Source: a bacterium (GTDB lineage Bacteria; UBA10199; 2-02-FULL-50-16; JAJFLM01). From it: a stretch of 64,000 nucleotides of DNA. The DNA lies in the NCBI GenBank assembly GCA_965216315.1, contig CBDCFN010000016.1, positions 1,946,181 to 2,010,180 on the forward strand, in the 5' to 3' direction. A model generated the notes under the pieces. That model did not search any database. It was not told where the DNA came from and saw only the letters and a list, made by a program, of their open reading frames with translations. Position numbers and translations under genes: made by a program. How positions within the stretch are numbered: position 1 is the stretch's first letter; every line of letters begins with the position of its first letter. Positions 34,175 through 50,971 of this stretch are shown here, piece after piece.

Positions 34175-34481
34175 ACCCTCCTATCGGAGGACATACATAA
34201 TAGTTTCATTGTTAACGTCCAGCGACGCATTTTTATGTTTAGATTATTAGACACTTCATGACGCAATAGTATAACGCCTTGATTCAACGATTCAATAATT
34301 GAATCATGCCTCAAATAATTGCTCAGGCAATATACACATCTCCCCCTGAATTCGATCCCTCAGCCGTGGCGTCTAATATTCGGAAGCTGGCAGTTACCCA
34401 GGCCGTGTCGGAGACCATAGGCGTCGAGACCTCTTGCACCTTTTGATTAGACGTCTTAGACTAAAGCCAGTTCTTTGAATT

Positions 34482-34572
34482 GGGGGCGATTTGGGTTCGA
34501 CGGAATCGCCAGAAATGACGATAGCAGGTCGAGGTTGACGTCATAGGGGCTTGCGTCGCCCCCTCCGGAAGC
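34482..34572 (+). pseudogene. Partial, decayed duplicate of the ssrA 5' end (56 nt, 53/56 identical), followed by a T-arm-like hairpin
   Basis: 34482-34537, gggggcgatttgggttcgacggaatcgccagaaatgacgatagcaggtcgaggttg, aligns with 34785-34840. It is followed by GGGGC-ttgcgtc-GCCCC (34546-34562). There is no tag frame and no matching acceptor 3' strand. Confidence 0.6.
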
Positions 34573-34784
34573 AAAGCTTGCGGGCCGATCGCAGAGCTCT
34601 CGGCATCTGAGGCACCAGAGGTGCTGATCCAAGCCTCCCCTTCTCGCTCGCGTTGCTCGCTAGACAACCTCGGCAAAACATATAAGGTGTTCTTTGAAAC
34701 GATGAGGGATTGTTAAGGGGGAGAGAGTTTTTCTTCCCCTTAACTAGAAGCCAATCCGAAGCTGCGCTTTCGGTTGGCTGCAAT

Positions 34785-35141
34785 GGGGGCGATCCGGGTT
34801 CGACGGAATCGCCAGAAGTGACGATAGCAGGTCGAGGTTGTCCGAACCTTGTCTAAAACGGACACAGGCTATAAACGCCGATCATGATGCGCCTTTGGCG
34901 CTTGCTGCTTAATTAAGCGGCCGTCTCTTAGGTTCTTGTCTGCGGGATTTAATGAGACGCCATTTGCAGACTGGCTCAGAGGACATTGTCTTCGAAAATC
35001 TGGGTGAGAAACTCCGAAGGCTAGCGGCCGAACCCCTGTCGATGGGGAAACTCGGTGGCGAATCACTAATCATCGACTAAGCCTGTAGCGATCGTCATGG
35101 AAGCCTTCCGGACGGGGGTTCGATTCCCCCCGCCTCCACCA
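34785..35141 (+). ncRNA. ssrA: tmRNA (transfer-messenger RNA)
   Basis: The 5' GGGGGCG pairs with the 3' CGCCUCC, including the G3-U wobble. T-arm GGGGG-UUCGAUU-CCCCC, 3' ACCA, 5' GGGUUCGACGG D-loop analogue, internal tag frame ending ALAA-UAA. 357 nt. Confidence 0.92.
34868..34912 (+). other. tmRNA tag reading frame (predicted tag ...ADHDAPLALAA; resume codon uncertain)
   Basis: GCT ATA AAC GCC GAT CAT GAT GCG CCT TTG GCG CTT GCT GCT TAA. The canonical hydrophobic ALAA end is followed by a second stop (TAATTAA). Confidence 0.6.
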
Positions 35142-36582
35142 ATTGATAAGTGGTCGACGTTTTGCGAGCAGGGACCACGGCAAATGGTAGGAAAAGCGCA
35201 GGGTTTTGGCCGAAACGCGAAAGTTCGAGCCGATCTTTTTTAAGAATTCCTTTTGGGAGGAGTAATCGTCGCCACTCGCCAGCGGACCCGCTTGGTGAGC
35301 CGCCTGGAGGAATTCGAGGCAGGGTTCGAGCCAACCCATTGCCCCGGTCTCAAGGGCCGTCAGCTTTTCCTCTAAACGCACCTTCTGTTTCAATAATGAT
35401 TCCTTCTTGGCTTGATACTCGACGCGATCGATGATGCCGTCGAGATGGGCGTCCAAGAGACGATCAAGCTTGCCCTGAATGGCCGGCATCTCCCGGTCGA
35501 ATTGTTCCTTAAAGCGTGCAAGGGGTTGGCGAGAATCCTGCTGCTCCTTGGCCCACCACGCGATCATCTGTTGATAGGCGTCAGCCGGCAGAGCGACCTT
35601 TGCGATCGCGGTGCTGATTTGTTTGGCTAAGTCTTCCTCTCGGACAAAGGGCTCGGTACACGGGCCTTTCTTCTTGGTGCAGCGATAATAGTGATATTTC
35701 TTTTTCTGTCGCTCTGCCGTGATGGCGCCGTCACAATTGGCGCAACTCGCCAGGCCAAGAAAGGGAAATAAGTGCTTACGATGTTTGTGAGGCACGCCGC
35801 TCTTGGTCAGCAGACCTTGCACCTTATCGAACAAGTCTTTCGTAATAATGGGTTCGTGGGAGCCCTGATGCCACTCGCCGGAGAACTCGAATAAGCCGTA
35901 ATAGAAAGACTTGGTGAGGATGCGATAAAGGGCGGCGTGCACAAGTGGCTTATTTTTGCGGCTCAGCAAACCCCACTCGGGCGCCATGCGCCGTAGATCC
36001 TCCACCGTATAGCGCCCCGTCGCGTAGGTCTCGAAGAGTTTCTTGATCAGGGGCGCTCGCTCGGGATCGATGACAACCTTTCGGGTCTTTTGGTCATTGT
36101 CGTAGCCCAAGGGTGCGACCCCCGGCCATTCCCCACGCCTTAACTTTTGGCGAATCCCGCGGCCGAATATTCTCCGAAAGGTTGTCCACGTAATACTTGG
36201 ACTGCCCAAAGGCGATATTGAGCATAAATTTGCCTTGTGGCGTGTTTTCGAACCAAAAAGTCGGGAACTTAAGCGCCTTAATATGCTCAGTATCTAAAAA
36301 GTAAATAATCCGGCCGCCATCGACGGAATTGCGCGCGAGTCGATCCGGGTGCCAGGCGATAATCCCTTGGGCCTCACCGCGTTCAATGCGCTCCATCATG
36401 TCATTGAAAATCGGGCGGCCGGGGACCTTGGCCGTCTTGGATTCGGTAAAAATTTCCTTAATTGTTAAACGTTCTTTTTCAGCGAAGAGTTTTAGTTCCG
36501 CGATTTGTGATTCAATTGATAAGACCTGTCGCTCTTCGCTGTCGCTGGATTTACGGGCATAGAGAAAATACTGGGAAGACAT
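35070..36582 (-). pseudogene. Large serine recombinase (integrase) disrupted by a single-nucleotide frameshift
   Basis: N-terminal resolvase domain in ORF 36094-36648 (YARKSSDSEERQ..., HPDRLARN). Recombinase domain, zinc ribbon (CANCDGA...YYRCTKKKGPC) and coiled coil in ORF 35070-36209. The two frames join as ...SENIRRGIRQKLRRGEWPG if one C/G is removed from cccgcggccg (36156-36165). Confidence 0.85.
35136..35211 (+). repeat. Left copy of a perfect 76-bp inverted repeat (includes the last 6 nt of ssrA, CCACCA, and the recombinase 3' end)
   Basis: The manual reverse complement of 36740-36815 equals 35136-35211 exactly. Confidence 0.9.
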
Positions 36583-36739
36583 GGTCGACGTGCTATCGCC
36601 TTTGGGCACGCGTGGCAAATTGGAAATGGCGCCTCCCCGCGAAGGCAAGTGCGATCGGCGCCCGGCGCCGTCAGGTGCCGGCCAGGCGTCGCAGGGACTT
36701 TAAATTTCCCGGAAACGAATGGGGACTTTCGCCAGTGCA

Positions 36740-36815
36740 GGCCAAAACCCTGCGCTTTTCCTACCATTTGCCGTGGTCCCTGCTCGCAAAACGTCGACCA
36801 CTTATCAATTGGTGG
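36740..36815 (-). repeat. Right (inverted) copy of the 76-bp repeat, fused to the ACCA end of tRNA-like module X_A
   Basis: See the left copy. The junction on the minus strand reads ...tccacaggcaccACCA|attgataagtgg... Confidence 0.9.
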
Positions 36816-36967
36816 TGCCTGTGGACCAAAATTCGAACTTGGTTTCAAGAAAATGCGTGACCGCGAGGCCACTTGCTGCAAAAGCCGCGCCGAGCGGTCA
36901 CTAAATGACTATTCCACAGGCACCTTCCCGCCACGCGCTCGTCACGGCTTGTGCAGCCCCGTGTGCC
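36810..36967 (-). repeat. Inverted repeat IR2-A, containing tRNA/tmRNA-like module X_A (12-bp closing stem, T-arm-like hairpin, ACCA)
   Basis: GGTGCCTGTGGA (36814-36825) is complementary to TCCACAGGCACC (36913-36924). The minus strand has CCAAG-TTCGAAT-TTTGG immediately 5' of TCCACAGGCACC-ACCA. About 158 bp match 42477-42634 in inverted orientation, with 8 mismatches by manual alignment. Confidence 0.8.
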
Positions 36968-37264
36968 TCTCGTGCCGCCGCTTGGCCCAGCGCCGAGCCC
37001 CTGGCTACACAAGGCCTGGGCATCCGCCAGCCCCCGCACATAAAGCTGCCCAGGCCGGGGACGCAGAGGGCTGGGCGGGAGGGTGTTAGCTAGTAATGGA
37101 CAATTTTTCGCCACCCGGAAGCGAGGCGCTGAAAAAGTATATAGAAATGATGGAGAATTTGTTGATTAAATAGCAGGATATCATGCCATATGTAGCAATA
37201 GCATGAAGATGTACATCAGACTTACTAAGTATTTGACTATGGCCAACCAAAATACGGGGTTGCT

Positions 37265-37993
37265 ATGACGGTTATGAGCATTTTAGCGGGTATAATCGCC
37301 CTCTTAATTCTAGTCGTATTGAGCAACATTGCCAGTGCGGTACGAGGAAACAGACAGGCCATGGAATCAGCTTGCTCAGATATCAACGATAAAATTGGTG
37401 AGCTTAATAATATCTTATACGAAATAAAAACCGCATCAGAAGAACTACTAGATGTGATCAAGACGGTAAGTGAAACTATGTATAATATGGAAGAAAAGAC
37501 TCATGAACCGATCGTTGATATATTTGGCCCTAATAACTTCCATACAATGTCTAATGATGAAAGGGAAAGCGTCAGCAGTGAGCTAGAAAAGAAAATTTCT
37601 GAGAACAAGACTTCGCAAGACGAATTAGAAGATTGGATCAAAAGCTGGATCATATTTTTTTCACATACGTCATATATTTACGAGATTTTATCTAAAAAGG
37701 ATCTTTTGAACAATGTAAGTCCCGAAACAAAGGAATTGCTTCAAGAGCGTCATGAACAAGCTCAAATGTTTGTTAAAGTAGTTGGTGAACTGAAGAATGG
37801 CAGCGATTTAAATAAGGTAGAACAGTTTCTGGCTAATATCAAAGACCAGAAAGCTAAAAAACTGGTAGTTCGATCGGCACTATACGAAATTTATGGGAAA
37901 AAGGTTCTTCTGAATATTAAGGACATGAAGGATTTAAAGATCTTTTCTGAAGCAACAAATATACCCATTAAATTCATTTTCAACTATCTTTAA
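37265..37993 (+). CDS. Single-pass membrane protein with a long coiled-coil/helical domain (242 aa), unknown function
   Basis: N-terminal TM segment MSILAGIIALLILVVLSNIASAV, followed by E/K-rich helical sequence. AT-rich codon usage. Convergent with the NTPase gene. Confidence 0.65.
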   Translation: MTVMSILAGIIALLILVVLSNIASAVRGNRQAMESACSDINDKIGELNNILYEIKTASEELLDVIKTVSETMYNMEEKTHEPIVDIFGPNNFHTMSNDERESVSSELEKKISENKTSQDELEDWIKSWIIFFSHTSYIYEILSKKDLLNNVSPETKELLQERHEQAQMFVKVVGELKNGSDLNKVEQFLANIKDQKAKKLVVRSALYEIYGKKVLLNIKDMKDLKIFSEATNIPIKFIFNYL

Positions 37994-38058
37994 CATCTGA
38001 CGATGCACTGATATGCGCATAATAAATATACGGTGCATTGTAGTAGATACTGTGCGCT

Positions 38059-41000
38059 TTAGTTGTATTTCTTGAATTTGCACTGCTTGGCACCAATAAG
38101 CTTTGACCTACTGTTGAGCATAAATGCTCCGCTGATATTCAATCTTCCCAATGCACCACCACCGAGATAGCCACTGCCAAACAAGTGCTTTTCGCCGAGA
38201 AGAGTCCAAATAATTGAATAACCATTTTTCTTAAGATAGTTGTGTAATACAGACTTATTAATAAGAATTGACCGAGGCATAGAATCACTAAAAACATTCG
38301 GGTCGAAAGCTATTAGTTTTTTACCGGCACTGTAGAAGCGGCCATCAGTATAATGTTGTCTTATTCGTAATTTATCTATTAACCATTTCGCGGGTAGCTT
38401 GACTCGGATCGATTCGCTTGTTGAACAATCAATCGATGAACCACTACTAAGATATGCGTCATCCGTTACTAATATCTTAGCAGGCATTAATTTGTCACTT
38501 GGAGCGGTCGTCCAACCTTCATGGTGATAATATGGAATGTAATAGTATAAGAATGGATGCGCCCAAGGATACTCACCCAGGAAAACTCTATAAAACTCAT
38601 GAGATTCAGGCATCCACCTACCCATGAAATCTTGCTTCTTTGCCCATAAATAAAATTTCTTCGCATCCCTCTTCTTAACAATATAGCTCTTTATCATATA
38701 CCAAATTGTTCTTGTGGGTGTCTGATATTTATCTTTCTCTGGGGCGATCTCATTTTGCCACTGAATATGACTTTCGAGCGCAAGCCAACTAACGTGATTA
38801 TCATCAGATGTTTCAATAAGGCTAAGGGGATCTGGCAAATCATTTTTGCTCTTTATCCATGTCGCATCAGATGCTCTTTTCTTCCAAGATTTGTGAATAG
38901 TGGTGTGTTGGTATAGCCCTAGATTAGGAACACCTTCAGGCTTAGAGTTTGGTGGATCTTTTAATATGCAAGATGGGTCAATATCCCTAACACTCAACTG
39001 CCAGGGTCCTTGATAAGGGCCATAGCGATCGGGCCACCGTTCTATTTTAAACTCGAAATTATCTCCAATCCGTGCCAATAGCTCATGAAAAGCAATCCAC
39101 TGATATTTTTTTCCTAATCTTTCAGCTTTCTGCTCTGACTGACTTACTCGATAATAATTGACGCGTCTGTCGAAATCACTGTGTAGTTCGTTTTTCAATC
39201 CAAACTGCATAACTCGATGAACTAACCATCTCTGAGCTAATGCCGCATCAAATTCATCAAGTGAATCACTTATATTTCCATGATCATCAATATACGGCTT
39301 AAATTCTCTTTCAAAAAATGATCTTTTTGGCTGCTGCAAAGATTCAATGAATTTTCTCCAAGCAGCTTTTCTCTCTTTATAGTATTGTTTTAGTTTTTCC
39401 TTAGTGTCACTATCATCGTTACCATAGACAATGAGTGGAATACTCACAATGCTTGAAGGGCTTGTAATTTGTCTATATAAACGCCTTTGCTGCTTATTTA
39501 ATTTTTTAATAAATTGCTGATATTGTTCCCTCCTGCTCGCACCTCGAGACATAAGAGGTCGGCTTGACCAGCAATTAAGTGTTGAATTAAGCTCATATCG
39601 TCCAAAGTCGCCAAACATGACAGATGACCATACTTGACGTAATGCTCCATCGTCGGCTGTACACCTTAACTTTAGTCTATCTGCAGTCGGAACTCTTTTT
39701 GGCCATTTGCTGTTATACGGAGGCGCTATTTTCTTCTTACTAACACGTAATTTAAGCTTATTCTTTAAGGCGCATTCAATAATTCCCCGTGCATAATCGC
39801 GTAATAGAATTTGTACTGGTGGCTTGTTATCCTCAAAAATACTTTTATATACCCAGCTAGCTAAGGCCTTGAGCGCCTTTTTGTCGCCTTGGGACCGCAA
39901 GGCACAACCATACGCTATAGCGTAAATCCGCTCTGCGACATACATATCATTAACATTCTGAAACCCTCTCAGTAATCTCAGTACAATATTTAAGCGATTC
40001 GTTAAAATTGCAATGAGTGCCTTTGTACTTTTGTCTCTTAAAAATCTATTAGACGTTGTTAGGAACCATGATAATGTAATTGCACATAACTCTGCAGATT
40101 CATCGCTCAAATGGGATTTATCGTACTCGGACCAAGCCCATGTAACAAGTCGATCGACAGCTTCCTTATTGCCATATTCGTCATGCAAATATATTGACCA
40201 CCACGAATCACGATTAGCCATTGAATACTTAAATAGGTGGCCATGAAGATAATACGCATTGAATGGATGTTCTGGTATAGGTGCAACAGACAGAAAAGCA
40301 TTAAGTAGTAAAGTGTGGCCTCTCTCTGATCTAATTATATGGGTATTTATGAGCCTTATTGTATTTTGAAGACTATGCGAGAAGGCAGTAGGCTTTCGCC
40401 ATATAATACTTTCGATAAAAGCTTCCTCAGCAAGCTGTAATTGATAGTGACCCTTTAAGAGATAAGGGGCGACCTCTATAAATTCACTTCCTTTTAAATG
40501 CTCTGGGCACTGTATTGATAATGTTTCAATTATGCCCCGCCCTAGAGGTTGTGAAATAAATTTACCGAGCTTTCTACGTTTTGAAAAAAATCTTTTAGCA
40601 GTATTGATATTCTTATTGCCTTTTCCAAATTCTGATTCATACTCCTTGAAAATGTACCTACCAATTAAATGATCACTAAATTTCTGAAAAGGGAATCTAT
40701 ATTCGAATCCACTGTCGGAATCCCCTCCACTCGTATATTTTGGGACTTTGACTAACAATAACTGCTTTTCCAACGCGCTAATTAAAGCATTGCAATCAAC
40801 CGTGGGGTATGCATTTGCAACTATTCTGATAAGCTCTTTGTCTGTAATTCTATCTGAGCGTCGTGAAACCATATCATGAGCTATTTGCTCAATAATGGTA
40901 TCCCATATGACATAGTCACCTTTTTTATTTCTGCCTTTAGGTAGTGCGAATTGCTTAACAATATTCCTGCTAGCGAATTTAATGAAATTCTCAAAAATAT

Positions 41001-42198
41001 AAGTAGCACCTTCATGGCCTCGAAATACCGGCTTTTGACCAGTTGTTTTCTTTCCACTGGGCTTAGTTCGGCTTTCGTAGGCTTTGCAAAATAATAGCAA
41101 GAATAGGGGGTTGCGGAATTCTGGCGCAAGCAATGGGACTTCTGGAAGAGGCAAATTGAATTCATTGAAAAATTTGTTTACGGCCTCCCACTCACGGAAT
41201 TCAAAGCCATGATGTTCAGCAAAAACAAATTGTTTCATTTGCGTATTACTGAGAGTGTCATGCTCAAAGCCTGTCCTTACACTAATAGCTAATGCAATAC
41301 ATGGATATCTCTTAAGCGTATCAATGAACTTTTTAAGCTTGCGCTTCCAAATTTTCGGATGATGCGTTTCGTTCAGCGCATCTATAACTATGAGGGAGCG
41401 GACACCTGTTTCTCGTCCAGCCTGATTTAGTAATTTAAACAATCCATTAGATGTCAGCACACCTTTCAATCCGATCTGGTGTATTATTTGGTCAGCTAAA
41501 TCAGCGCTATCTGTAAAATACTCTCCAAACGTCACTACTGTTGGAAGATGTTGTTGTCTCTTGATGCGCGTTTCCACCACGTCACATAAAAGATGTGTTT
41601 TTCCAGTGCCCGCTAAACCCGTTAATAATAGAAATGGCTTATTTGATAGTTTGGCAGAAACGCTGAGCGAAAACTCTTCAAAATTCCTAATCTCTTGTTG
41701 AGTTTTATATAGATATTCTATGTCTGCCTTAATTCGGCTCAAGTACGATTCAAGTTCAGTATTTTTCTTAGTTTCTCTTGTTTTCCTATCGATGACCGAT
41801 TTTTCATCTTCTAATAGTCTAACCAGCTTTCGACACAATGGTATTGCCTTTTTGCTGCGAGAACTAATAGACGGCCACGGAATTATCCTCGTATTAAATT
41901 CTTTTATTTTACTGAGCAATGTCAGGAGAGCTGAGACTTCTCTTTTCAAGTTTCTGTAGGCGCTATCTATCTTTTTCTTCTTATGTTTATTAGATATTCG
42001 GTTAAAGGTTCTTGAGAAATCGCCGAAATCCTTTCTAATTGAAGTATAAAATGTTTCTGTTCTTGCTATTCCATCAAATATTTGGGCAATCGGTACTTTA
42101 ATGTTTAATTTAGGCGTATACCGAGGGCCGGCTTTCTTCAGAACTTTCTCTAGGTGAGAATGAAGCCATTTTTTGTCGAGGAAGAGATTCTTAACCAT
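38059..42198 (-). CDS. NACHT/STAND-like P-loop NTPase, ~1380 aa, with an N-terminal Lys-rich coiled-coil region and a >1000-aa unassigned C-terminal region
   Basis: Walker A LLLTGLAGTGKTHLL (about res 195-209; DNA about 41590-41630). Walker B/NACHT-like SLIVIDALNE (about res 273-282). The ORF track starts at TTG 42213; ATG 42198 is more likely. Confidence 0.8.
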   Translation of the reverse strand: MVKNLFLDKKWLHSHLEKVLKKAGPRYTPKLNIKVPIAQIFDGIARTETFYTSIRKDFGDFSRTFNRISNKHKKKKIDSAYRNLKREVSALLTLLSKIKEFNTRIIPWPSISSRSKKAIPLCRKLVRLLEDEKSVIDRKTRETKKNTELESYLSRIKADIEYLYKTQQEIRNFEEFSLSVSAKLSNKPFLLLTGLAGTGKTHLLCDVVETRIKRQQHLPTVVTFGEYFTDSADLADQIIHQIGLKGVLTSNGLFKLLNQAGRETGVRSLIVIDALNETHHPKIWKRKLKKFIDTLKRYPCIALAISVRTGFEHDTLSNTQMKQFVFAEHHGFEFREWEAVNKFFNEFNLPLPEVPLLAPEFRNPLFLLLFCKAYESRTKPSGKKTTGQKPVFRGHEGATYIFENFIKFASRNIVKQFALPKGRNKKGDYVIWDTIIEQIAHDMVSRRSDRITDKELIRIVANAYPTVDCNALISALEKQLLLVKVPKYTSGGDSDSGFEYRFPFQKFSDHLIGRYIFKEYESEFGKGNKNINTAKRFFSKRRKLGKFISQPLGRGIIETLSIQCPEHLKGSEFIEVAPYLLKGHYQLQLAEEAFIESIIWRKPTAFSHSLQNTIRLINTHIIRSERGHTLLLNAFLSVAPIPEHPFNAYYLHGHLFKYSMANRDSWWSIYLHDEYGNKEAVDRLVTWAWSEYDKSHLSDESAELCAITLSWFLTTSNRFLRDKSTKALIAILTNRLNIVLRLLRGFQNVNDMYVAERIYAIAYGCALRSQGDKKALKALASWVYKSIFEDNKPPVQILLRDYARGIIECALKNKLKLRVSKKKIAPPYNSKWPKRVPTADRLKLRCTADDGALRQVWSSVMFGDFGRYELNSTLNCWSSRPLMSRGASRREQYQQFIKKLNKQQRRLYRQITSPSSIVSIPLIVYGNDDSDTKEKLKQYYKERKAAWRKFIESLQQPKRSFFEREFKPYIDDHGNISDSLDEFDAALAQRWLVHRVMQFGLKNELHSDFDRRVNYYRVSQSEQKAERLGKKYQWIAFHELLARIGDNFEFKIERWPDRYGPYQGPWQLSVRDIDPSCILKDPPNSKPEGVPNLGLYQHTTIHKSWKKRASDATWIKSKNDLPDPLSLIETSDDNHVSWLALESHIQWQNEIAPEKDKYQTPTRTIWYMIKSYIVKKRDAKKFYLWAKKQDFMGRWMPESHEFYRVFLGEYPWAHPFLYYYIPYYHHEGWTTAPSDKLMPAKILVTDDAYLSSGSSIDCSTSESIRVKLPAKWLIDKLRIRQHYTDGRFYSAGKKLIAFDPNVFSDSMPRSILINKSVLHNYLKKNGYSIIWTLLGEKHLFGSGYLGGGALGRLNISGAFMLNSRSKLIGAKQCKFKKYN

Positions 42199-42476
42199 AT
42201 TTCGTGAGTGCAAGAGTATATTTTAATCATACCGAACAACAGGGAAAACATTTATCCAATGTAGTGCTTGCCGCGGGCCCGATTCGGGGGTGCGGGGGGA
42301 GAAGCGGGCCCGCGGCCCCGGCTTCAAGTGGCGTCTTTCAATCTATGGCGAGGCCTGGAGTCAAGCGACGGCCCACTGGGACCGTGGGCGGTGCAGGCCG
42401 AATGCCTGAGCGCCCGGCCTGCGTAGCCTTGGCGAAGCAGGCTAGCGAAGGCATGAGGCTTGCTCAGCCAATTTAG

Positions 42477-42634
42477 GGCACGCGGGGCTGCACAAGCCGT
42501 GACGAGCGCGTGGCGGGAAGGTGCCTGTGGACGAGGCATTTAGTGACCGCTCGGCGCGGCTTTTGCAGCAAGTGGCCTCGTGGTCACGAATTTTCTTGAA
42601 ACCAAGTTCGAATTTTGATCCACAGGCACCACAA
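42477..42634 (+). repeat. Inverted repeat IR2-B, containing tRNA/tmRNA-like module X_B
   Basis: GGTGCCTGTGGA at 42520-42531 and TCCACAGGCACC at 42619-42630. T-arm-like CCAAG-TTCGAAT-TTTGA at 42602-42618. The internal stem GTGACCGC/GTGGTCAC has a G-U where copy A has G-C. Confidence 0.8.
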
Positions 42635-43027
42635 AATTTGCGCAGCCAATTTTGTCCCTATATTCCATATACGATATGCGCCATGGCGCAAATTTTCGTA
42701 TATAGAATATCGTATAGGGTATATGGGGACTTATTGCTGACTTTGAATCAACAAAGTAACAATATAATCCTGCGATTGCCTGCTTTCCAATATGGAAGAT
42801 AAACATAAACAATATCTCGAACGTATGTATCCGTTACGGAGCACTAAAAGATAATAATACAAAGATGGGAGATATTGTCCGTATATATCACAAAAATGTT
42901 AGTGAGCCCACAAAAGACAGAAATCGAATAACAGAATAGATATTCAATTAACCTATGATCATGCGGGCCGTATGATATCAGGGATGTGATTCGCAGGCGA
43001 GTTAACCAGCGGACTCACATCTGGGGG

Positions 43028-43339
43028 TCAGTAGGCTTTTGAAGCTGCCTCTTGCTCTCTAATACGTGTAGTCATAATGTTATTCAAGAGCATTTTATCC
43101 TGCTTCTGTAGATCCGGAAATCTTAGCTTCATTCTCATTTCATTAAGAGTCTTTTTATCTCTCTTCATTAGCAATCCGATAGCTTCATCAAAAAACGAAA
43201 CGGAACCAACTAATTTTCCGCCAAACTGTATCTCGATTCTTGGCTGATCCCAATTGTCATTAATCAGAGTTCGTATCTTTTTTCCAGCTTCACGAGAAAT
43301 GATATCTTCACCGCAAATTTCTGGGACATTAATTATCAT
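43028..43339 (-). CDS. STAS-like (DUF4325-like) small protein
   Basis: The pattern IEIQFGGKLVGSVSFFDEAIGLL...LRFPDL resembles the DUF4325 STAS-like family. The likely start, ATG 43339, overlaps the upstream stop by 11 nt (ATGATAATTAA). Confidence 0.6.
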   Translation of the reverse strand: MIINVPEICGEDIISREAGKKIRTLINDNWDQPRIEIQFGGKLVGSVSFFDEAIGLLMKRDKKTLNEMRMKLRFPDLQKQDKMLLNNIMTTRIREQEAASKAY

Positions 43340-44210
43340 TGAAAATTCCTTCTTCTTCTCTGAGAATATCATAATAACTTTCACCATCTAAATTAATCTG
43401 AAAATCTACGCACGTTCCCATAAACGATTTTTGAGCTTTTTTGTAATCGTATTCGCTGCGATCATATTTCAGTGCAATTTTTGCCTTGCCTGAAAAAATG
43501 TATAGTCTTCCTGAATTGTGTCTGAGAGCTTCTTGTATTATTTGATAGCCTCGACCACCTTCTATTTCATCTCTTGTTGTTAAGCTTTCTTTCAATAGGC
43601 GCTGGATTGCATCCTTGTCAGTTCCTAAGTCCTCATATCGCGTACGTAGTTTATATGGTATTCCAACTCCAAAATCTAAAAAAGCTATGTGCATGTTATG
43701 AGATCGTCCCCAAGAACCAACGCAGGCATAACAAGTACGCTCTCCACTATGGTCTAATGTATTTGTGAGTAACTCTGTAAGAATGAGTCGTGCCATATCT
43801 TTGAGGTCTGGGGTGAATCTAGGAGCGTTCGCGGCTATTATAGCAAGCATGTCATCTAGAGACATAGTATTGTAACTGTCGAGCCTCCGAAGTTGGCACA
43901 TCTTCTCAGTTACCATAATGCTTTGAGGGCCATCTGGTTTACTAAGATACCTTATAGCCCGCAATGCATTTTGGGCGCGCCTGGCCGAAGGCAAAGTTAT
44001 TCTTATTTTATTGTTTCTGCCCCACGCTAAATCTGTCAGGCCACATAAGAAACATACGGAAAGTGCGCTAACTTCAGTAGTTCTCTTGAGGTCGAAGTGA
44101 ACTATTGAATTTTCTATGCCGCGCACTTTACGGACTGCCGCCAATAAGGAATCAATGTAGGCCACCGTCAGCTGTTTGGGGAAAGGAATGTCGATAGTGC
44201 CGGGGATCAT
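43329..44210 (-). CDS. GHKL-superfamily ATPase/kinase (RsbW/SpoIIAB-like HATPase_c) with an N-terminal STAS-like region
   Basis: N-box LTELLTNTLDH, G1 box FLDFGVGIP, G2-like GGRGYQII. 293 aa, AT-rich. Confidence 0.7.
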   Translation of the reverse strand: MIPGTIDIPFPKQLTVAYIDSLLAAVRKVRGIENSIVHFDLKRTTEVSALSVCFLCGLTDLAWGRNNKIRITLPSARRAQNALRAIRYLSKPDGPQSIMVTEKMCQLRRLDSYNTMSLDDMLAIIAANAPRFTPDLKDMARLILTELLTNTLDHSGERTCYACVGSWGRSHNMHIAFLDFGVGIPYKLRTRYEDLGTDKDAIQRLLKESLTTRDEIEGGRGYQIIQEALRHNSGRLYIFSGKAKIALKYDRSEYDYKKAQKSFMGTCVDFQINLDGESYYDILREEEGIFNDN

Positions 44211-44567
44211 AGATGTAACCTACTGAAATATATAGACTATGTAAATCAATAATTGCAGATAATTATATATAACATCATAATAGGTGTTTAAATTCATATA
44301 CTTATGAATAATTTAAATCCCCGGCATCAAGGGGGCTGGCATCATGAGCTGCGCTTCTATCAATCAGCCTGGCAAGCGGAAGTAATATCGTTTCAGAAGC
44401 CATAGTAGTTGAAGTTACGGCACTCCCACGGCACTGGCTAATTTTTTCTTGAGTAATTTCTTTTGCTTACGCCGATCCGCGGAGGATTCGACGAGCCTTT
44501 CGCAGAAGGCGAAAATTTCCACCGTGCGATTGCCAAAATAGGCAATCGCATCCTCACGAAGCGGTGA

Positions 44568-44598
44568 GGACGAGCAAATCCCCCCCCCACCTCCACTA
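44568..44598 (+). repeat. Degenerate direct repeat of the ssrA 3' end (T-arm/acceptor); putative distal att remnant
   Basis: ggacgagcaaatcccccccccacctccacta here compares with ggacgggggttcgattccccccgcctccacca in ssrA 35111-35141. Confidence 0.55.
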
Positions 44599-44604
44599 TT
44601 CAGT

Positions 44605-44693
44605 GTGCGTCCAAGAGGCGATCCAACTTGCCTTGAATGGTCGGCATCTCCCGGTCGAATTATTATTTAATGCGTGCGGCAAGGGATTGGCGC
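44605..44693 (-). pseudogene. ~89-bp remnant of a second serine recombinase gene (homologous to 35448-35533)
   Basis: ...gcgtccaagaggcgatccaacttgccttgaatggtcggcatctcccggtcgaatt... aligns with ...gcgtccaagagacgatcaagcttgccctgaatggccggcatctcccggtcgaatt... The remnant translates as FDREMPTIQGKLDRLLDAH versus FDREMPAIQGKLDRLLDAH. Confidence 0.7.
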
Positions 44694-47600
44694 TTGCGAA
44701 GCGTTCCCAGGACAAGGAGACAGAGAGCCAGTACAGCCCATGGCAGCCCCGCGTTCACTCTTTCCGCAAATGAAGCGCTTGTTAAGCTACAACTGGAGGA
44801 GCCGCCGCCGCCCTCCACTTCTAAACAATCAAAGAAACCGTCGCGGGGAGCACTGACATCCACTACGAGATGCTCGCATCGATCACATGCACCCAATTCA
44901 ACTCTCTGGGGATCATCAGGGCAGTCGTCATTGCAGTCCAGTACGCCGTCACCGTCGCTGTCGACATCGTCGGTCTTATCCGGATCGTCGGGGCACTGGT
45001 CAACTTGCTCCAGACCGGTCTCCAGGCAGTCGGTGATGCCGTTCTGGTTTTCATCCAGGTCCGCTTCGCCGCAACCGCAGTCGCCCTCCTCCGTCTTGTT
45101 CGGATCATCAGGACACTCGTCATTGCAGTCCAGCACGCCGTCTCCGTCGGAGTCGACATCGAAATCCTTTTCCGGGTCCGTGGGACAGAAATCCTCGCTG
45201 CCGTCCGAGGGCATGCAGTCAGTATCACATCCGTCACCATCGACGCCATTGGCGTCGTCGCACTGCTCGACGCCGGACTGCACAAAACCGTCGCCGCAAA
45301 AAGCGGAGGTACAGTCGGGCAGACACTTATTATAGAACTGATTGGCAACGCCGTTGTCGCATTCCTCGCCCGGACCGACGATGCTGTCACCACAGAACGC
45401 CTGGGTACAGTTGTTCGTGCAACTGTTGCTATTGTCGTTGTCACCGTCGTCGCATTCTTCCGAGCCCTCGGGAATGCCGTTCCCGCAGCTGCCACCTTCA
45501 AGCTCGCAGTTTGCACAGATCAGCCCTAAGGCGGCATAATCAACACCGTCTTCAGGATCGCATTCCTCGCCCGCTGCAATCTGCACGATACCGTCGCCGC
45601 ACACGGCCTCGATGCATTCGTCACTGCAGGAGTCGTCGTTGACGCCGTTGCCGTCGTCACATTCTTCCACGCCGTCACCGGTCAACTGGACCACGCCGTC
45701 GCCGCAAATGTTCTCTGAACAATCGTTCTTGCAGCTGTCATGGGGATCGGTATTGCCATCATCGCAGTCTTCACCGGCCTGCGGGACGCCGTCACCACAT
45801 GATGGTTTTTCACACGTGTTGCTGCATTCATCGTCATCGGTGTCGTTACCGTCGTCACATTCCTCGCCGAGCGTGGCCTGTGTAATGCCGTCACCACATT
45901 CCTCGATCACGCATGTACTACTGCAACCATCGAGCGAGTTATTGTTTGCGTCATCACACTCTTCGCCGTCGTCGAGATTGCCATCACCACAGCGTGCCTC
46001 GATTTCGCATGATTCGGAACACCCATCGCCATTGCTGTTGTTCCCGTCGTCGCAGTCCTCGGTACCGAACTGGACGAAGCCATCGCCACATGCGGCATTC
46101 AAACAACTCGTTGTACATCCGTCGTTGGGATTGACATTGCCGTCGTCGCATACCTCCGTGCCTTCGACGACGCCGTTTCCGCAGCGGGGCTCGACAATGC
46201 AGATATCGGAACATCCGTCGCCGCTCGACTGGTTGCCGTCATCACACTCTTCGCCGTCGTTCGGATCTAAAATGCCGTCACCACAACGCTGGTTGATGCA
46301 GCCCGGGCGGCAGCTGGCGTCGGGGTCGGTGCTGTTGCCGGCGCCGTTGTCACAATCCTCGCCGGGATCCGTGTTGCCGTCGCCGCAGAACGGGGCGATC
46401 ACATGGCAGATCGCGTCGCAGTTGCCGGAATTCGGCGGTTCGCATTCTTCGCCCAGGAGCGGCTGGATGGAACCATCACCGCAGGATTCGGCGACACAGG
46501 TATCGGAACACCCGTCGCCACTCGATTGGTTGCCGTCATCACATTCTTCACCGGCAACAGAATCTCGAATGCCGTCACCACAACGGGATAACACGCAACC
46601 CGGTCGGCAATTGGCATCGGGATCGTTGCTATTGGCCGCACCGTCATCGCATTCCTCACCGGGGTCCGGGTTGCCGTCGCCACAGAAAGGGGCAATAAGC
46701 TGGCAGGCCGCGTCACAGTCATCGACCGAGGGGGGTTCGCACTGTTCGCCCAAGAGCGGCTGGATGGAACCATCGCCGCAGGATTCAGCGACACAGGTAT
46801 CGGAACAGCCGTCCCCGCTCGACTGGTTGCCGTCATCACACTCTTCGCCGTCGTTCGGATCTAAAATGCCGTCACCACAACGCTGGTTGACGCAACCCGG
46901 GCGGCAGGTCGCGTCGGGGTCGGTGCTGTTGCCGGCGCCGTCGTCACATTCTTCGCCGGGATCCGTGTTGCCGTCTCCACAGAACGGGGCAATCACATGG
47001 CAGATCGCGTCGCAGTTGCCTGAATTCGGCGGTTCGCATTCTTCGCCCAGGAGCGGCTGGATGGAACCATCACCGCAGGATTCGGCGACACAGGTATCGG
47101 AACACCCGTCGCCACTCGACTGGTTCCCGTCATCACAATCTTCTCCGCTCTGCTGAATGCCATCGCCGCAACGCTCCTCGCGGCAGAGATGACTGCAGCC
47201 GTCATTATCATCCAAGTCGCCGTCGTCGCATTCCTCGCTGGGCTGCTGAATGTTATCGCCACAGGCTTCCAGCTGACAGGTCGCCGAACAGCCGTCGTTG
47301 TCCGACTGGTTGCCGTCGTCGCACTCTTCATCATCGCCGCCACCGATCGTATTATCAGCACCGTCGGGGTCGAGAACACCGTCGCCGCAGCGCTCTTCAC
47401 GACATAAATGATTGCAACCGTCACCGTCGATGAGGTTGTTGTCGTCGCACTCTTCACTGGGTTGCTGGATACCGTCACCACACGCTTCCAGTTTGCAGTT
47501 AGCATCGCAGCCGTCACCATTGGACTGGGCGCCGTCGTCGCATTCCTCGTTATCGTCGAGCGTAGTGATGTCATTATCAATACCGTTTAGATCAAGAACC

Positions 47601-50600
47601 CCATCCCCGCAGCGCTCGGGTTGGCAAAATTCACTACAGCCATCACCGCTGACCGGAAGACAAACGGCACTGTTCGGATCGACACAGCCGCTGACGTCAG
47701 CCGTCGTGCAAGCCACATTGATATCATCGCTGCAGACGCCACCGTCGTCGCACTGCTCGCCGGCAACACCTTGCGTATGACCATCGCCGCAAACGGCGCT
47801 CTTGCAGTCATCTGTGCATAAGTCGTGATTATCGATGTTGCCGTCGTCGCATTCTTCGGCGACGAGTTGTCCCGTCACCGGGTCGACAAAAACATTGGTG
47901 ATGCCATCACCGCATTCCTCGATCTGGCAAGACCGGCCGCAGCCATCTTTATCCTGCGTGATGCAGACCGCGCTGTTCGGATCGGCACAGCTGGTTACAT
48001 TATCAATGGTGCAGGGCACATTGGGATCATCACTACAAACACCGCCGTCGTCGCATTCTTCGCCGGTATCCAGGACACCGTTACCGCAATTCGGCCCGCC
48101 GTTGCCACCATCGCCGCCACATTCCAGTTCGCAGGAATCCGGATGACAATAACAGTTGTCGGGTACATCCGGGTTTCCGTCTGCATCAAATTCGCATTCT
48201 TCCAGTGCCTCGATCTCACCATTGCCACAGACGGGTCCTTGGCAATCGTTGCCGCAGGCATCATTGTCGACATTATTGCCGTCGTCGCATTCCTCGTCGT
48301 CGTCGGTGTTGGGGATGTTGTCAGGTCCATCCGGGTCGGTAACACCGTCCCCGCAGGATTCAATGTTGCAGGCATTGTTGCAACCATCACCATTCCTTTG
48401 AACACAGGGGGTCGGGTCGCCGTTGGCGTCGACCGGGCACTGCGAAACACTCGTACAGGCGCTTCCGCCTACAAGACAGTGTTGGCCGTCGTCGCACTCT
48501 TCGTCCTTGTCGAGGATACCGTTGCCACAGGATTCAAGTATGCAGAATTCGCTGCAGCCCGGGTGCCGGATCGGTTCACAAAAGTTGAACTTGAGGATCG
48601 GATCGCAGTCAAAATCAGAGGTGCACGCGGTGCCGGTTTGGGAACAAGCACCACCCTCATCACAGCTTTCAAAGGGAGGTTCAACGACACCGTTGCCGCA
48701 TCGGGAATCATTCAATTCGATCGCGCCCCGGTCGCAGGCAGCATCCGGTCCGTAGCGGTCCGTGCCAAGTTGGTCGTCGGCGGGACAATCGTTACTGCCC
48801 GTATCGTTGGCAATACTGGACGCAAGCAGCGGGCAATGCGGTTCGCCGGCGATGCTTGATGAGGTGTCGCAGACGTCCAGGCCGGCATCCGTATCGGGCG
48901 ATACCATAATGTCGTTCGTCATCGCCGCAACAATCGCGCCGCTTAAGTCGCCAAGGAGGTTAAAGTCGTTCGAGTTCAGTCCACCGCTGTAATTGGGTCC
49001 ACTCGCTTTGGCGGTGTTCTCTGCCAGGATCGCGTTTCTCATGCTCGTGTTGCTGTTGAGGCTGAAGACACCGCCGCCCTCCTCACTAGCCAGGTTGCGC
49101 GCAATCGTGGAACTGAAGATATTGATATAGGTCTCCGGGATGACAAAAGGATCCGTCGAACCCGGATCCGGAAAGACGATGCGCGCCTGCTGAAGTTCGG
49201 TGCTGCTAACATCCAGGTAAGCATTCGTCTGAAGGCTGTTTCTAATCGTATCATTGGTGACAATCTGGTTTCCATCGGTACGGCTTCCGTCGCCACCGTC
49301 ATTGCGGCCACCATCCCCACCGTCGTCGAAGATTGACTGGCAGATATTGGGATCCCCCAAGATGAAGAAACCGCCGCCCAGTTTGGCCTCGTTTTCAAAG
49401 ACGCTGGTATTGGTAATGCCGACGTCACTGCACAAAAAAGCCAGTCCGCCGCCGAACTCGCCGGCGAGGTTGCTGTGGAAAGCGCTCTGTTCGATCGTGA
49501 CATTACTGACAGCAGCGCCGATCGCCCCGCCCAGTCCCGTGATACTGTTAACCTCCGAAGAGTCCTCAGCGATGACGAGGTTGTCTGTAAATGTAGAATT
49601 GCCGATGTTGAGGTTGCCCGCCGCCATGACGATGGCGCCCCCGATCGAGGACACGTTACCGGCAAATATTGAGTCCGTGATCTCGACTGTCGAAAGAAAC
49701 TCCGTCGCGACGGCACCGCCAATGCCGTCTTCGCGGCCCACTGTCAGCGGATGCGGTGTCGTCAGCGTGCTGTTGCCTTTCAAGGTAGACTGATGGATTT
49801 CTAAGATACCGGGCCCGCCGCCACCGTTGTTGTCGTCACCTTCCTCACCGACGAGGAGTGCACCGCCGTTATAACATTCATCGCAGATCTCAGGTTGGCA
49901 TTGGTCGGTACAACCATCTCCGTTCTGCGGGGCGCAGATTTCTTGACGATTGGCACTGCAAGGATTCTTGGCATCGCAGAAGGCACCGAGTTCCCCCGTC
50001 GTGACATCCAGGCAGCGGCCACCGTCGTCGCATAACTCTGCCGGCGCATCGACGATACCATCCCCGCAGGATTCCAGTTGACAGAAGCTGTCACAGCCGT
50101 CCCCGGATTGCGGGATGCAATCATTGGCGGCGCCATCGACGACCGGACAAGGATTATTGGCGTCGCAGACGGACCCGTCCGCGGAACAAAGACCGCCGTC
50201 ATCACACTGCTCGCCATTAACGGGTTCTTTTACGCCGTTACCGCAGGAGGCATTGTCTCCGCTGTTCAAGCGCCGACAATTGAAATCACAAGGAGGGCCG
50301 CTCGTATCGCCGGGATCGCATTGCTCACCGTTTTCGACGATGCCATTGCCGCAGCTTTCCAATTGGCAGTCGGCACTACAGCCATCGCCATCGACTCGCT
50401 CTCCGTCGTCGCATTGTTCACCTACATCCACCTGGACGATGCCATCACCACAGAACAGCGGATCGCAACCGGGATTGAATTTATTGATACTAAGGTTGTT
50501 GAATGACGCCAGGCCGCGAACATGGGCGAGCCGGAAGAAAATGTCTCCATCGGGATCCGAGCCGAGACCGACAAGGTCCGCAACGCCACCGCCGTCGATA

Positions 50601-50971
50601 ATGACCGGAGCCTCAATCACAGGCAGTGCGTTGGGGCCGTTGCAGGCATTCAAATTGAAATTATCGACCTGCGTAAATTGGTAGATGCCGGCCGTGAGGA
50701 CAATAGTGTCTGTCCCGTTGCCGGGAGTACAGCCGTCGACTTGTTCTTCGCGCCTCGAGGCTTCGAGCGCCTCGCCGAAAGAACATTTTCCGTCCTGGTC
50801 ACCGCCGATCGTGGGAGGACCTGACGGCAATTCGCCGCAGCGAAGTGGCGCAGCCGCCCCGCTATTACATTGGACCGTCGTATCGACGATAATCGTCGCC
50901 CCGTAGGCGCTGCCCGCAATACTTAAAGTGATTAAAAAGAAAAGAGTCTTACCCAGCGTCTTTGCGTTCAA
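44663..50971 (-). CDS. Giant secreted protein: signal peptide, CSLREA-like motif with a parallel-beta-helix/PMP-like repeat region, dozens of Myxococcus-type Cys-rich repeats, TSP3-like Ca-binding repeats, C-terminal TM anchor
   Basis: Signal peptide [24 protein letters not shown] (TTG start with a GAGGGGG RBS). [11 protein letters not shown] motif. GGAI/GGGL...N repeats. Many C-GDG[17 protein letters not shown] units. [18 protein letters not shown] repeats. C-terminus [19 protein letters not shown]. Confidence 0.9.
46206..47097 (-). repeat. Three tandem 297-bp (99-codon) coding repeats inside the Cys-rich gene
   Basis: The tatcggaaca(t/c/g)ccgtc(g/c)cc(g/a)ctcga(c/t)tgg motif recurs at about 46206, 46503, 46800 and 47097. 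Units 1 and 3 are nearly identical (protein ...[42 protein letters not shown]...). Confidence 0.85.

Follow-up and report, generated by a model that had tools for sequence, protein, structure and literature searches.

The locus studied here raises the question of whether two convergent genes in an AT-rich cassette form a new defence system. In the window, i.e., the whole stretch of 64,000 nucleotides that was analysed, the larger gene encodes an NTPase and the smaller one a membrane protein of 242 aa. The initial annotation presented this pair as a novel two-gene module with a domain combination matching no nameable system. It also named in advance two outcomes that would speak against it, namely a known family for the NTPase and a lack of co-occurrence of the gene pair. 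Both were observed. The locus is not a new defence system, since the NTPase falls in the Avs2 family (AVAST type 2) and the 242-aa gene fails to accompany Avs2 elsewhere. Standard tools (PADLOC, NCBIfam) already label the large gene as Avs2, and it has no weight as a candidate new system. It does reveal that the best-studied family of terminase sensors includes a large and conserved branch devoid of any effector domain.

According to the best overall explanation, which we regard as highly probable, the large gene encodes an antiviral STAND NTPase of the Avs2 family, from a deep and widespread effector-less branch. The adjacent 242-aa gene is separate cargo. The avs2 gene itself is the cargo of a ~9.6-kb AT-rich island, put into ssrA by a large serine recombinase whose gene has since acquired a frameshift.

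Organization of the cassette and the ssrA island

The small gene (37265..37993, plus strand) and the large ORF (38059..42213, minus strand) converge, with a spacer of 65 nt between them. The GC content of the cassette is 0.35-0.39. The host genes on either side have 0.47-0.58, and the recombinase gene has 0.51-0.55. The cassette is enclosed by a 159-nt repeat, with a left arm at 36809..36967 (minus strand) and a right arm at 42477..42635 (plus strand) that are 95% complementary. A 34-nt piece of this repeat occurs twice in the window, for a chance expectation of 0. The cassette had been described as AT-rich and repeat-bracketed, which is correct, with the amendment that the arms are inverted rather than direct. 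Each arm contains a tRNA-like element, and 15-nt direct repeats flank the right one. An origin of the arms as displaced fragments of the tmRNA 3' end was rejected: they match no tmRNA/tRNA model, and their acceptor-like stem differs from the tmRNA 5' end.

The integration target of the island is the tmRNA gene (ssrA; 34785..35141, plus strand), identified by ARAGORN and by Rfam RF00023 at 170 bits. It is adjoined by a large serine recombinase gene (35070..36648, minus strand), with the Pfam domains Resolvase, Recombinase and Zn_ribbon_recom, and the 3' ends of both genes overlap. The setting in an ssrA island beside a recombinase had been recognized from the start. With the three domains, the overlap with the tmRNA 3' end and the AT-rich cargo, the locus has the features that define t(m)RNA-targeting large-serine-recombinase islands. 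The recombinase gene carries a +1 frameshift near 36162, its Pfam domains being spread across two frames, and comparison with homologues places the frame switch of the window copy at residue 164/165. Judged from this frameshift, recombinase activity is doubtful. A remnant of the recombinase gene is present at the far end of the island.

The large gene encodes an Avs2 protein

The mechanical ORF of the large gene runs to a TTG at 42213, which corresponds to 1384 aa. The true start is probably the ATG at 42198, giving a product of 1379 aa (38059..42198, minus strand), because all close relatives begin with the motif M-x-KN-x-FLDKKW. The protein matches the NCBIfam equivalog NF041813 (Avs2) with 1230.5 bits, versus a cutoff of 1000, over profile positions 1-1312 of 1317. 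Six Avs2 models of PADLOC also match, the best one being PDLC02164 with 1287 bits. Finally, residues 11-1380 align to residues 164-1482 of EcAvs2 in the cryo-EM structure PDB 9o4e (E 2.6e-203). The large gene is thus a clear member, by sequence, of the characterised Avs2 family, from a branch without the usual killing domain. These matches bear out the earlier view of a STAND NTPase of an Avs-like anti-phage kind and remove the claim of novelty, for which PADLOC and Pfam had been proposed as checks. The unbroken NF041813 coverage of residues 25-1368 leaves no room for a further domain in other parts of the protein.

The nucleotide-binding core of the STAND NTPase (41209..41640, minus strand) is recognized by its Walker motifs, AAA_22 and Foldseek. 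Walker A (GLAGTGKTH, nt 41593-41619) occupies residues 199-207 in the 1384-aa numbering, including K205, which is K200 in the 1379-aa numbering. In the same numbering, Walker B (SLIVIDALNE, nt 41368-41397) occupies residues 273-282, with D278 lying 73 residues past K205, in agreement with the spacing of about 70 residues given previously. GxxGxGKT and DALNE are invariant across the effector-less Avs2 clade. The NACHT label finds no support: Pfam NACHT (PF05729) reaches 18.1 bits, below its cutoff of 26.7 (E 0.0024), and the bNACHT models of PADLOC give no match. Pfam AAA_22 exceeds its cutoff with 30.8 bits, while the nSTAND matches, like the NACHT one, stay under theirs. Across ~150 residues, Foldseek finds the NTPase core to resemble Cdc6/ORC and Avs4 (8dgf).

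A helical N-terminus without effector

The first 190 residues are enriched in Lys (14%, versus 9.5% protein-wide), and no effector family was found in them among Pfam, PADLOC and NCBIfam. The AF2 model made with an alignment (pLDDT 85.6) is all-helical as far as residue 186, and on this model Foldseek matches the NTPase core alone, leaving the helical extension without a match, and 9o4e is not among the structures recovered. On these grounds, an effector fold concealed within residues 1-190 was discarded. The initial reading as a Lys-rich coiled coil without effector motif is therefore right in its composition, helical prediction and lack of an effector family, and the AlphaFold/Foldseek check that it called for was likewise negative for a fold match. 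The region is nevertheless not a novel one. The alignment to 9o4e opens at EcAvs2 residue 164, directly past the N-terminal effector of EcAvs2, and the best PADLOC Avs2 profile is matched only from position 169 onward. As the protein begins exactly at the end of the EcAvs2 effector, its N-terminal region (residues 1 to ~186 in the 1379-aa numbering; 41641..42198, minus strand) is, on this sequence alignment, the known Avs2 helical extension.

The fused N-terminal effector of a typical tripartite Avs is absent from the window protein and from its whole clade. We treat this as an atypical architecture inside Avs2 and not as an exclusion from it, because sensor and NTPase define Avs2, the effector being modular and outside the family HMM.

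The effector-less Avs2 branch

The start motif is common to some 100 cluster representatives, which are 1370-1400 aa long, and overall to more than 100 relatives with 46-57% identity. The N-terminal extension measures ~0 aa in all loci with at least 42% identity and 160-170 aa in most other loci. When 76 Avs2 cores were placed in an NJ tree, the 21 effector-less proteins all fell on the same side of its midpoint root, the side on which the window protein lies. The shared start motif, the ~0-aa extensions and this placement indicate that the effector-less state probably goes back to the ancestor of the whole clade and did not arise by loss at this locus. The possibility that the GC-rich repeat lying upstream of avs2 had cut off an effector at this locus was also considered, and was rejected in view of the start motif shared by all close relatives. 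The closest relative of the window protein is only 55% identical.

Pfam gave no match on the N-terminal domains of the effector-bearing relatives. These domains carry a PDAGVE...WQAK motif, which fits the Mrr-like PD-(D/E)xK type of the literature. According to GTDB matches, the effector-less branch is common in CPR bacteria, DPANN archaea, Omnitrophota and methanogen-related archaea, and its surroundings are those of defence and mobile elements (MmeI-type or DpnII RM systems, SMC/AAA_15 genes, integrases). In the Avs literature searched, whose scope leaves out Gao et al. 2022, Avs proteins are described as tripartite and no discussion of an effector-less Avs2 branch was found.

The neighbours of effector-less Avs2 genes were surveyed in 26 loci, many of them on short metagenomic contigs; the survey reaches effectors nearby and not those elsewhere in the genome. 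Clustering of these neighbours yields no candidate family for a conserved trans effector. The large serine recombinase is the sole neighbour family present in more than 3 loci (7/24 within 5 kb; 6/26 within 2 kb); a DNA methyltransferase and a small protein are found in 3 loci each. In the loci L012 and L086, the 3' end of the serine recombinase gene overlaps a tRNA gene, with Avs2 as cargo, comparable to the tmRNA overlap in the window. This repeated order of Avs2, serine recombinase and tRNA or tmRNA points to a small group of integrative islands by which avs2 is spread.

Sensor region and terminase contacts

The remainder of the STAND module and the Avs2-type sensor (38062..41208, minus strand) align continuously to 9o4e up to residue 1482. 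More than 1000 residues had been described here as lacking TPR-type periodicity. The same region in the solved EcAvs2 structure comprises a TPR-like helical domain and a beta-rich C-terminal sensor (PMC13601566), and by homology both are predicted in the window protein.

Nine EcAvs2 residues contacting the terminase or the bridging ATP were mapped. Three of them (D981, R1130 and E1444) are kept in the window protein, and W1266 is replaced by Y, a conservative change by which the position stays aromatic. The other five (T1128, R1132, E1362, E1364 and E1462) are altered, including R1132 to Q and E1462 to N, although both residues are kept in the clade consensus. Single mutants of the contact residues are tolerated in EcAvs2 (PMC13601566). 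According to PMC13581612, the type of sensor found in Avs2 is specific to its clade. As just 3/9 contacts are identical, plus the conservative one, terminase recognition by the effector-less clade is extrapolated over ~30-35% identity.

The 242-aa membrane protein

The product of the small gene was described earlier as having one N-terminal TM helix and a long helical domain, which our analysis confirms: residues 1-19 form a hydrophobic segment (Kyte-Doolittle mean 2.9) and the protein is predicted to be all-helical. The public gene call begins at M33 and so lacks the TM helix. The presence of an N-terminal hydrophobic helix in the sole relative of this protein favours the 242-aa reading. That relative, P0122, is remote (29% identity, E 6.5e-12) and was the only one recovered by an exhaustive HMMER search among 1.8 billion representatives; among 5.8 billion proteins, the 242-aa protein matched only itself. 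Searches against Pfam, PADLOC, NCBIfam and PHROGs returned coiled-coil noise only (E > 1e-3), with no Lactamase_B, radical-SAM or DUF6375 signal in Pfam, and the best Foldseek match had an E of 0.6.

As to a partnership with Avs2, for which co-occurrence had been suggested as a check, no homologue was found in 84 other Avs2 loci, nor in any of the 25 other effector-less ones. P0122 itself is not adjacent to an Avs2; the next gene downstream of it is co-directional and shows weak Fic-associated signals. The nearly unique 242-aa membrane protein is consequently regarded as near-orphan cargo and not as a conserved Avs2 partner. An amyloid-like motif shared by the Avs2 N-terminus and the C-terminus of the 242-aa protein (both 'LNIK') was considered and rejected by inspection. 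The Avs2 segment around it (RYTPxLNV...IAxIFDG) belongs to the core and can be aligned with the effector-bearing EcAvs2 as well, and P0122 does not have the motif.

Proposed mechanism and alternative explanations

Avs2 proteins sense the terminase ATPase domain and tetramerise, with the helical extension and the C-terminal sensor as binding interface (PMC13601566; bioRxiv 10.64898/2026.08.25.746987). In EcAvs2, the extension is situated between effector and ATPase and adjoins the bound terminase (PMC13601566). The window protein consists of a helical extension and a STAND NTPase, followed by what are, by homology, a TPR-like domain and a C-terminal sensor. By homology with EcAvs2, KpAvs2 and Avs2-trypsin, its sensor and helical extension would bind the ATPase domain of a phage's large terminase, ATP lying at the contact surface, after which the NTPase would drive tetramerisation. 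With no domain fused to its N-terminus, the protein cannot act through the usual activation of a nuclease or protease. The terminase nuclease domain is bound by EcAvs2 in a partly unfolded state (PMC13601566), which makes inactivation by binding plausible. The output may hence be a terminase sequestered in the complex, so that genome packaging would be blocked and the cell not killed. Given Avs2 membership, such a direct neutralisation would be the most likely output, and it is put forward tentatively; it would call for roughly stoichiometric expression. Alternatively, the output could come from a trans effector, either unlinked or specific to the cassette, or from assembly together with an effector-bearing STAND protein.

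It is conceivable, at a lower degree of confidence, that the effector-less branch as a whole is a working sensor and a non-suicidal NLR-like defence, locking the large terminase in an inactive Avs2 complex. The way in which a sensor and an NTPase could protect on their own would bear on the question of whether immunity of the NLR-like kind has to be suicidal. In a weaker variant, the output would come from interchangeable cassette-specific partners, e.g., the 242-aa membrane protein. In tested Avs families, deletion of the effector abolished terminase-induced toxicity (PMC13581612), and an effector-less protein may accordingly be inert in the standard assay.

Three other explanations were weighed against this one. 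The window protein could be a sensor-only subunit working with an effector-bearing STAND protein or another effector encoded elsewhere, comparable to sensor/helper NLR pairs. The clade is strongly conserved, yet has no effector fused or conserved nearby, and tetramerisation does bring the Avs2 N-termini together (PMC13601566). No second STAND protein was found among the window ORFs scanned (a subset), and we consider this explanation unlikely. In a locus-specific pair, the tetramerised Avs2 would recruit or activate the 242-aa protein, a single-pass membrane protein, and thereby damage the membrane. Such a pair would be in line with the lack of a fused effector in Avs2; the two genes are equally AT-rich and inside the same inverted repeats, the 242-aa family is real, with its TM helix kept in P0122, and Avs2 proteins with separate partner genes are known (trypsin-MBL; KpAvs2 with Avap1/Avap2). 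The convergent genes are, however, not co-transcribed. Homologues of the small gene are also absent within 2-5 kb of other effector-less Avs2 genes as well as from the 84 loci, P0122 is followed by the gene with Fic signals instead of Avs2, and the 242-aa protein is unlike known effectors by profile or fold, which makes a dedicated pair quite improbable.

The third explanation is that of a decaying, non-functional remnant in a dead island, the missing effector being a loss of function. The frameshifted recombinase, the recombinase-gene remnant at the far end and the two altered consensus contacts (R1132 to Q, E1462 to N) are compatible with decay of the locus. The avs2 frame itself is open through 1379 uninterrupted codons in AT-rich DNA. 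All catalytic motifs and ~200 clade-invariant positions are retained, and the effector-less state appears ancestral to the clade rather than lost locally. We therefore judge decay of this gene to be very improbable.

Comparison with known Avs2 systems

EcAvs2 (PDB 9o4e; PMC13601566) is homologous to the window protein over the whole core, with the same four-part layout, the Walker motifs and D981, R1130 and E1444. It differs by its ~160-aa N-terminal effector, which the window protein lacks, and in 5/9 mapped contacts. The KpAvs2 operon, in which an Mrr nuclease-Avs2 is accompanied by Avap1 (radical-SAM) and Avap2 (DUF6375) (PMC11564622), belongs to the same sensor/NTPase family and provides a precedent for accessory genes beside avs2. 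Unlike the window protein, KpAvs2 kills via its fused Mrr-like nuclease. Its genes form an operon, whereas the 242-aa neighbour is convergent here and shows neither accessory signal. In the Avs2-trypsin-MBL system of Vibrio cholerae, the Avs2 core tetramerises on the terminase ATPase domain and a second gene shares in the output (bioRxiv 10.64898/2026.08.25.746987). The Avs2 core is shared with the window protein; the fused trypsin-like domain and the MBL nuclease partner are not present at the window locus. According to Pfam, the 242-aa neighbour is of none of the partner types known from two-gene Avs2 systems (MBL; Avap1/Avap2).

Some effector-less counterparts already carry a name in public annotation, for example P0055 from Thermoleophilia (1377 aa) and P0057 from Ratteibacteria (1370 aa), which NCBI calls 'AVAST type 2 anti-phage system protein Avs2'. 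They have a similar length, the same start motif and the same clade as the window protein, with 46-55% identity. The window copy is distinguished from both by its ssrA island setting with a near-orphan neighbour.

Identification of the large protein as Avs2

An ORF scan located two convergent genes separated by 65 nt, a 242-aa ORF at 37265..37993 (+) and a 1384-aa ORF at 38059..42213 (-). Both are present as the initial annotation had described them, together with the Walker A (GLAGTGKTH, residues 199-207, K205) and Walker B (SLIVIDALNE, residues 273-282) motifs of the large ORF. The genes lie in an AT-rich block (~37090 to ~42270), with a GC content of 0.354 for the 242-aa gene and 0.386 for the large gene, compared to 0.47-0.58 for the flanking host genes and 0.51-0.55 for the recombinase. 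This block is enclosed by a 159-nt repeat (arms 36809-36967 and 42477-42635, 95% complementary), of which a 34-nt piece has two copies in the window against zero expected. The cassette is AT-rich and repeat-bracketed, as had been noted, and its repeats are inverted.

The pair had been put forward as a novel defence module matching no nameable system. The large protein scores 1230.5 bits against the NCBIfam equivalog NF041813 (AVAST type 2 anti-phage system protein Avs2; curated cutoff 1000), covering profile positions 1-1312 of 1317. Each of the six PADLOC Avs2 models matches it (top score 1287 bits), and a PDB search returned a single matching sequence, 9o4e (E. coli Avs2, EcAvs2; 1484 aa), at E 2.6e-203, with window residues 11-1380 aligned to 9o4e residues 164-1482. 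Because these matches place the NTPase inside a characterised Avs family, the large gene is an Avs2 family member and the claim of a novel module is refuted. The NACHT label is not retained either, since the Pfam NACHT match is sub-threshold (18.1 bits vs 26.7).

EcAvs2 starts with its effector, which a large helical extension connects to the STAND ATPase; this extension adjoins the bound terminase, and after the ATPase come a TPR domain and, at the C-terminus, a beta-rich sensor (PMC13601566). In the 9o4e alignment, the window protein starts where the EcAvs2 effector ends, and the top PADLOC Avs2 profile is matched from position 169 onward only. On this basis, the first ~190 residues, previously described as a Lys-rich coiled coil, correspond by alignment to the helical extension of the family, without a preceding effector domain. 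An AlphaFold2 model of residues 1-345 (12-sequence alignment; pLDDT 85.6, pTM 0.80) has only helices up to residue 186 and a nucleotide-binding fold after it. With this model, Foldseek matched the nucleotide-binding core alone (~150 residues; Cdc6/ORC and Avs4 8dgf).

An effector-less Avs2 branch

The large protein has 564 homologues with E < 1e-50. The best ~120 of the 564 share 46-57% identity with it, and most of these are 1370-1400 aa long at 99% coverage. The full-length relatives inspected have a common start motif, M-x-KN-x-FLDKKWQ..HLKKIK..AG-RYTPELNV, so that the predicted true start of the window gene is the ATG at 42198 and its product is 1379 aa long. N-terminal extensions beyond the start of the window protein were surveyed in 80 loci from GTDB species representatives: they measure ~0 aa in every locus at >=42% identity, and among loci at 28-36% identity most have one of ~160-170 aa. 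Truncation of the window protein was rejected, given the shared start motif and the ~0 aa extension of its relatives at >=42% identity. Midpoint rooting of an NJ tree of 76 core sequences leaves the 21 effector-less proteins, the window protein among them, all on the same side of the root.

Across the root, extensions carry a PDAGVE...WQAK motif, consistent with the Mrr-like PD-(D/E)xK nucleases that most Avs2 proteins are reported to have (PMC13601566, PMC11564622). Others have a hydrophobic N-terminus, which we take to resemble the non-enzymatic EcAvs2-type effector (PMC13601566). Some effector-less members are already named Avs2 by NCBI (e.g., P0055 and P0057). Avs proteins are described as tripartite in the literature (PMC13601566, PMC13581612, PMC11564622, bioRxiv 10.64898/2026.08.25.746987), and the effector-less branch is not discussed in those papers.

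The hosts of effector-less GTDB loci (L006-L020, L053, L085) are largely candidate-phyla-radiation bacteria (Roizmanbacteria, Saccharibacteria, Paceibacterota, Gracilibacteria, Levybacteria), archaea (Pacearchaeota, Methanosarcinales, Thermoplasmatota, Syntrophoarchaeum), Omnitrophota and Cloacimonadota. Members of the effector-bearing branch come mainly from Acidobacteriota, Chloroflexota, Bacteroidota, Cyanobacteria and Proteobacteria. Some close relatives (P0031, P0033, P0044, P0084 and others) form a subgroup that is ~100 aa shorter (1260-1300 aa), and its best local alignment covers only ~63% of the query, suggesting that an internal segment of the sensor was deleted or replaced.

Genomic neighbours of effector-less Avs2 genes

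Clustering of the neighbours of 24-26 effector-less Avs2 genes (24 loci within 5 kb, 26 within 2 kb) revealed no recurrent candidate effector. Only one family, a large serine recombinase, exceeds three loci (7/24 within 5 kb, 6/26 within 2 kb); three loci have a DNA methyltransferase and three a small protein. In two of the other effector-less Avs2 loci, the recombinase 3' end overlaps an opposite-strand tRNA gene, tRNA-Asn in L086 (11752-13471) and tRNA-Met in L012 (13864-15564), with Avs2 1.4-1.8 kb away and the same gene order as in the window. A 68-nt direct repeat in L012 (7813-7880 / 15337-15404) brackets the Avs2-to-recombinase unit and resembles the 74-nt repeat of the window (35446-35519 / 44604-44677). 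This arrangement suggests a family of small integrative islands carrying the effector-less branch. Other effector-less genes adjoin MmeI-type or DpnII RM systems and SMC/AAA_15 genes, and the clade thus occurs in defence islands. Of modest interest are the branch itself and its carriage on serine-recombinase islands at tRNA/tmRNA genes.

The 242-aa protein

Pfam, PADLOC and NCBIfam gave no match for the 242-aa protein, PHROGs gave only noise, and a word-indexed search of 5.8 billion proteins found only the protein itself. An exhaustive HMMER search of 1.84 billion representatives yielded one further relative, P0122 (225 aa, 29% identity, E 6.5e-12). In the public call, the protein begins at M33 (210 aa). 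As P0122 also starts with a hydrophobic helix and GGGG is located six bases 5' of the ATG at 37265, we favour the 242-aa reading with the TM helix. A single-sequence AF2 model (pLDDT 75.5) is all-helical, with one long helix (residues 2-78) followed by a helical bundle; Foldseek found no significant PDB neighbour for it (best E 0.6). The N-terminal TM helix and helical body annotated initially are thus supported by the P0122 start and the model.

P0122 is encoded on a 989-nt contig, on which it is followed by a same-strand gene fragment whose only signals are Fic-associated and below threshold (VbhA E 0.0096, DUF4172 E 0.014), and not by a convergent Avs2. In tblastn and phmmer searches, no match to the 242-aa protein or to P0122 lay close to any other Avs2 gene. 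The proposed partnership therefore finds no support in co-occurrence: judged from these searches, the two genes are not a conserved module and are linked by composition and position alone.

Proposed mechanism

The window protein is an Avs2 with an intact NTPase, no fused effector (clade-wide) and no conserved partner. By analogy with EcAvs2, KpAvs2 and the Vibrio cholerae Avs2-trypsin system, its sensor and helical extension would engage the ATPase domain of the terminase through an interface that includes ATP, and tetramerisation would follow. The output would be terminase sequestration, in which packaging is blocked without abortive infection. Conditional on Avs2 membership, we propose this output tentatively, given that neither a fused domain nor a conserved neighbour is present, that the interface is extensive and that EcAvs2 keeps the terminase partly unfolded (PMC13601566). 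Among the EcAvs2 contact residues, D981, R1130 and E1444 are conserved in the window protein and W1266 is conservatively replaced by Y, whereas T1128 (Y), R1132 (Q), E1362 (S), E1364 (S) and E1462 (N) are changed. This mapping backs terminase binding only partially; EcAvs2 tolerates single mutants at these positions (PMC13601566).

Against sequestration counts the finding that effector deletion abolished toxicity in the tested Avs families (PMC13581612), meaning that the Avs core alone does not kill. The output might instead pass through a helper STAND encoded elsewhere in the genome, which would accommodate the missing effector and partner but is unlikely in our estimate. The 242-aa protein, adjacent and similar in composition, could act as a local effector; with no counterpart beside other Avs2 genes, this appears quite improbable. 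That the window gene is dead, its NTPase being intact, is very improbable.

Organization of the ssrA island

The ssrA location beside a recombinase is confirmed: a tmRNA gene (34785-35141, +; ARAGORN, Rfam) is overlapped at its 3' end by the 3' end of a large serine recombinase gene (35070-36648, -; Resolvase, Recombinase and Zn-ribbon domains). The latter contains one +1 frameshift near 36162 (SENIR|RGIRQKL; extra base in CGGCCGCGGG, region 36094-36209), and homologues align across the frame junction at residues 164/165. As sequenced it is a pseudogene, unless the extra base is a sequencing error. The island extends roughly over 35142-44700, since the far copy of the 74-nt repeat is a recombinase remnant beside a 2102-aa protein gene (44663-50971, -; GC 0.58) that borders it. 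This ~90-nt remnant (44604-44677, to ~44695) overlaps the 2102-aa gene at its 3' end. It shares 86% identity with a stretch of the recombinase gene (35446-35519) and probably derives from an earlier island occupant. The 2102-aa protein looks secreted, with many Cys-rich 'CGDG...CDDGN..DGC' repeats. Housekeeping genes (glucosylglycerol-phosphate synthase, sodium:solute symporter, amylase) lie to the left of the island.

Past the right repeat arm there is another AT-rich pair of cargo genes (43028-44210, -; GC 0.36-0.41). It encodes a 293-aa HATPase_c-like protein (Pfam E 2.8e-4, below cutoff; phrog_3364 E 1.3e-26, function unknown) and, overlapping it, a 119-aa protein with a weak DUF4325 STAS-like match. 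The pair resembles a kinase/anti-sigma-antagonist-like pair; PADLOC gave nothing beyond a weak DrmA segment match.

Folding revealed a ~112-nt tRNA-like element in each repeat arm (36809-36929, -, left; 42515-42636, +, right), called neither by ARAGORN (default settings) nor by Rfam (E<=1). Each is closed by a ~12-bp stem (GGUGCCUGUGGA / UCCACAGGCACC) with ACCA after it, and also contains a hairpin resembling a T-arm, with UUCGAAU as its loop, and a long internal hairpin. The MFE values are -49 and -52 kcal/mol, with z-scores of -4.1 and -4.4. The T-stem of the right copy is broken by a G-to-A change. Directly either side of this copy are 15-nt direct repeats, TTGC[T/G]CAGCCAATTT (42460-42474 / 42638-42652); they resemble a target site or att core duplicated on both sides of a 163-nt insert.

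An 85-nt inverted repeat (95%; 35127-35211, + / 36740-36824, inverted) flanks the recombinase gene. It consists of the last 15 nt of the tmRNA and 70 nt encoding the recombinase C-terminus; in the second copy, those 70 nt follow the left tRNA-like element, not the tmRNA. Inverted att sites or nested elements are candidate histories. The tmRNA 5' end is present once more 303 nt upstream of the real gene (34476-34537, 92% identical to 34779-34840), and this extra copy may be the remnant of an earlier ssrA rearrangement.
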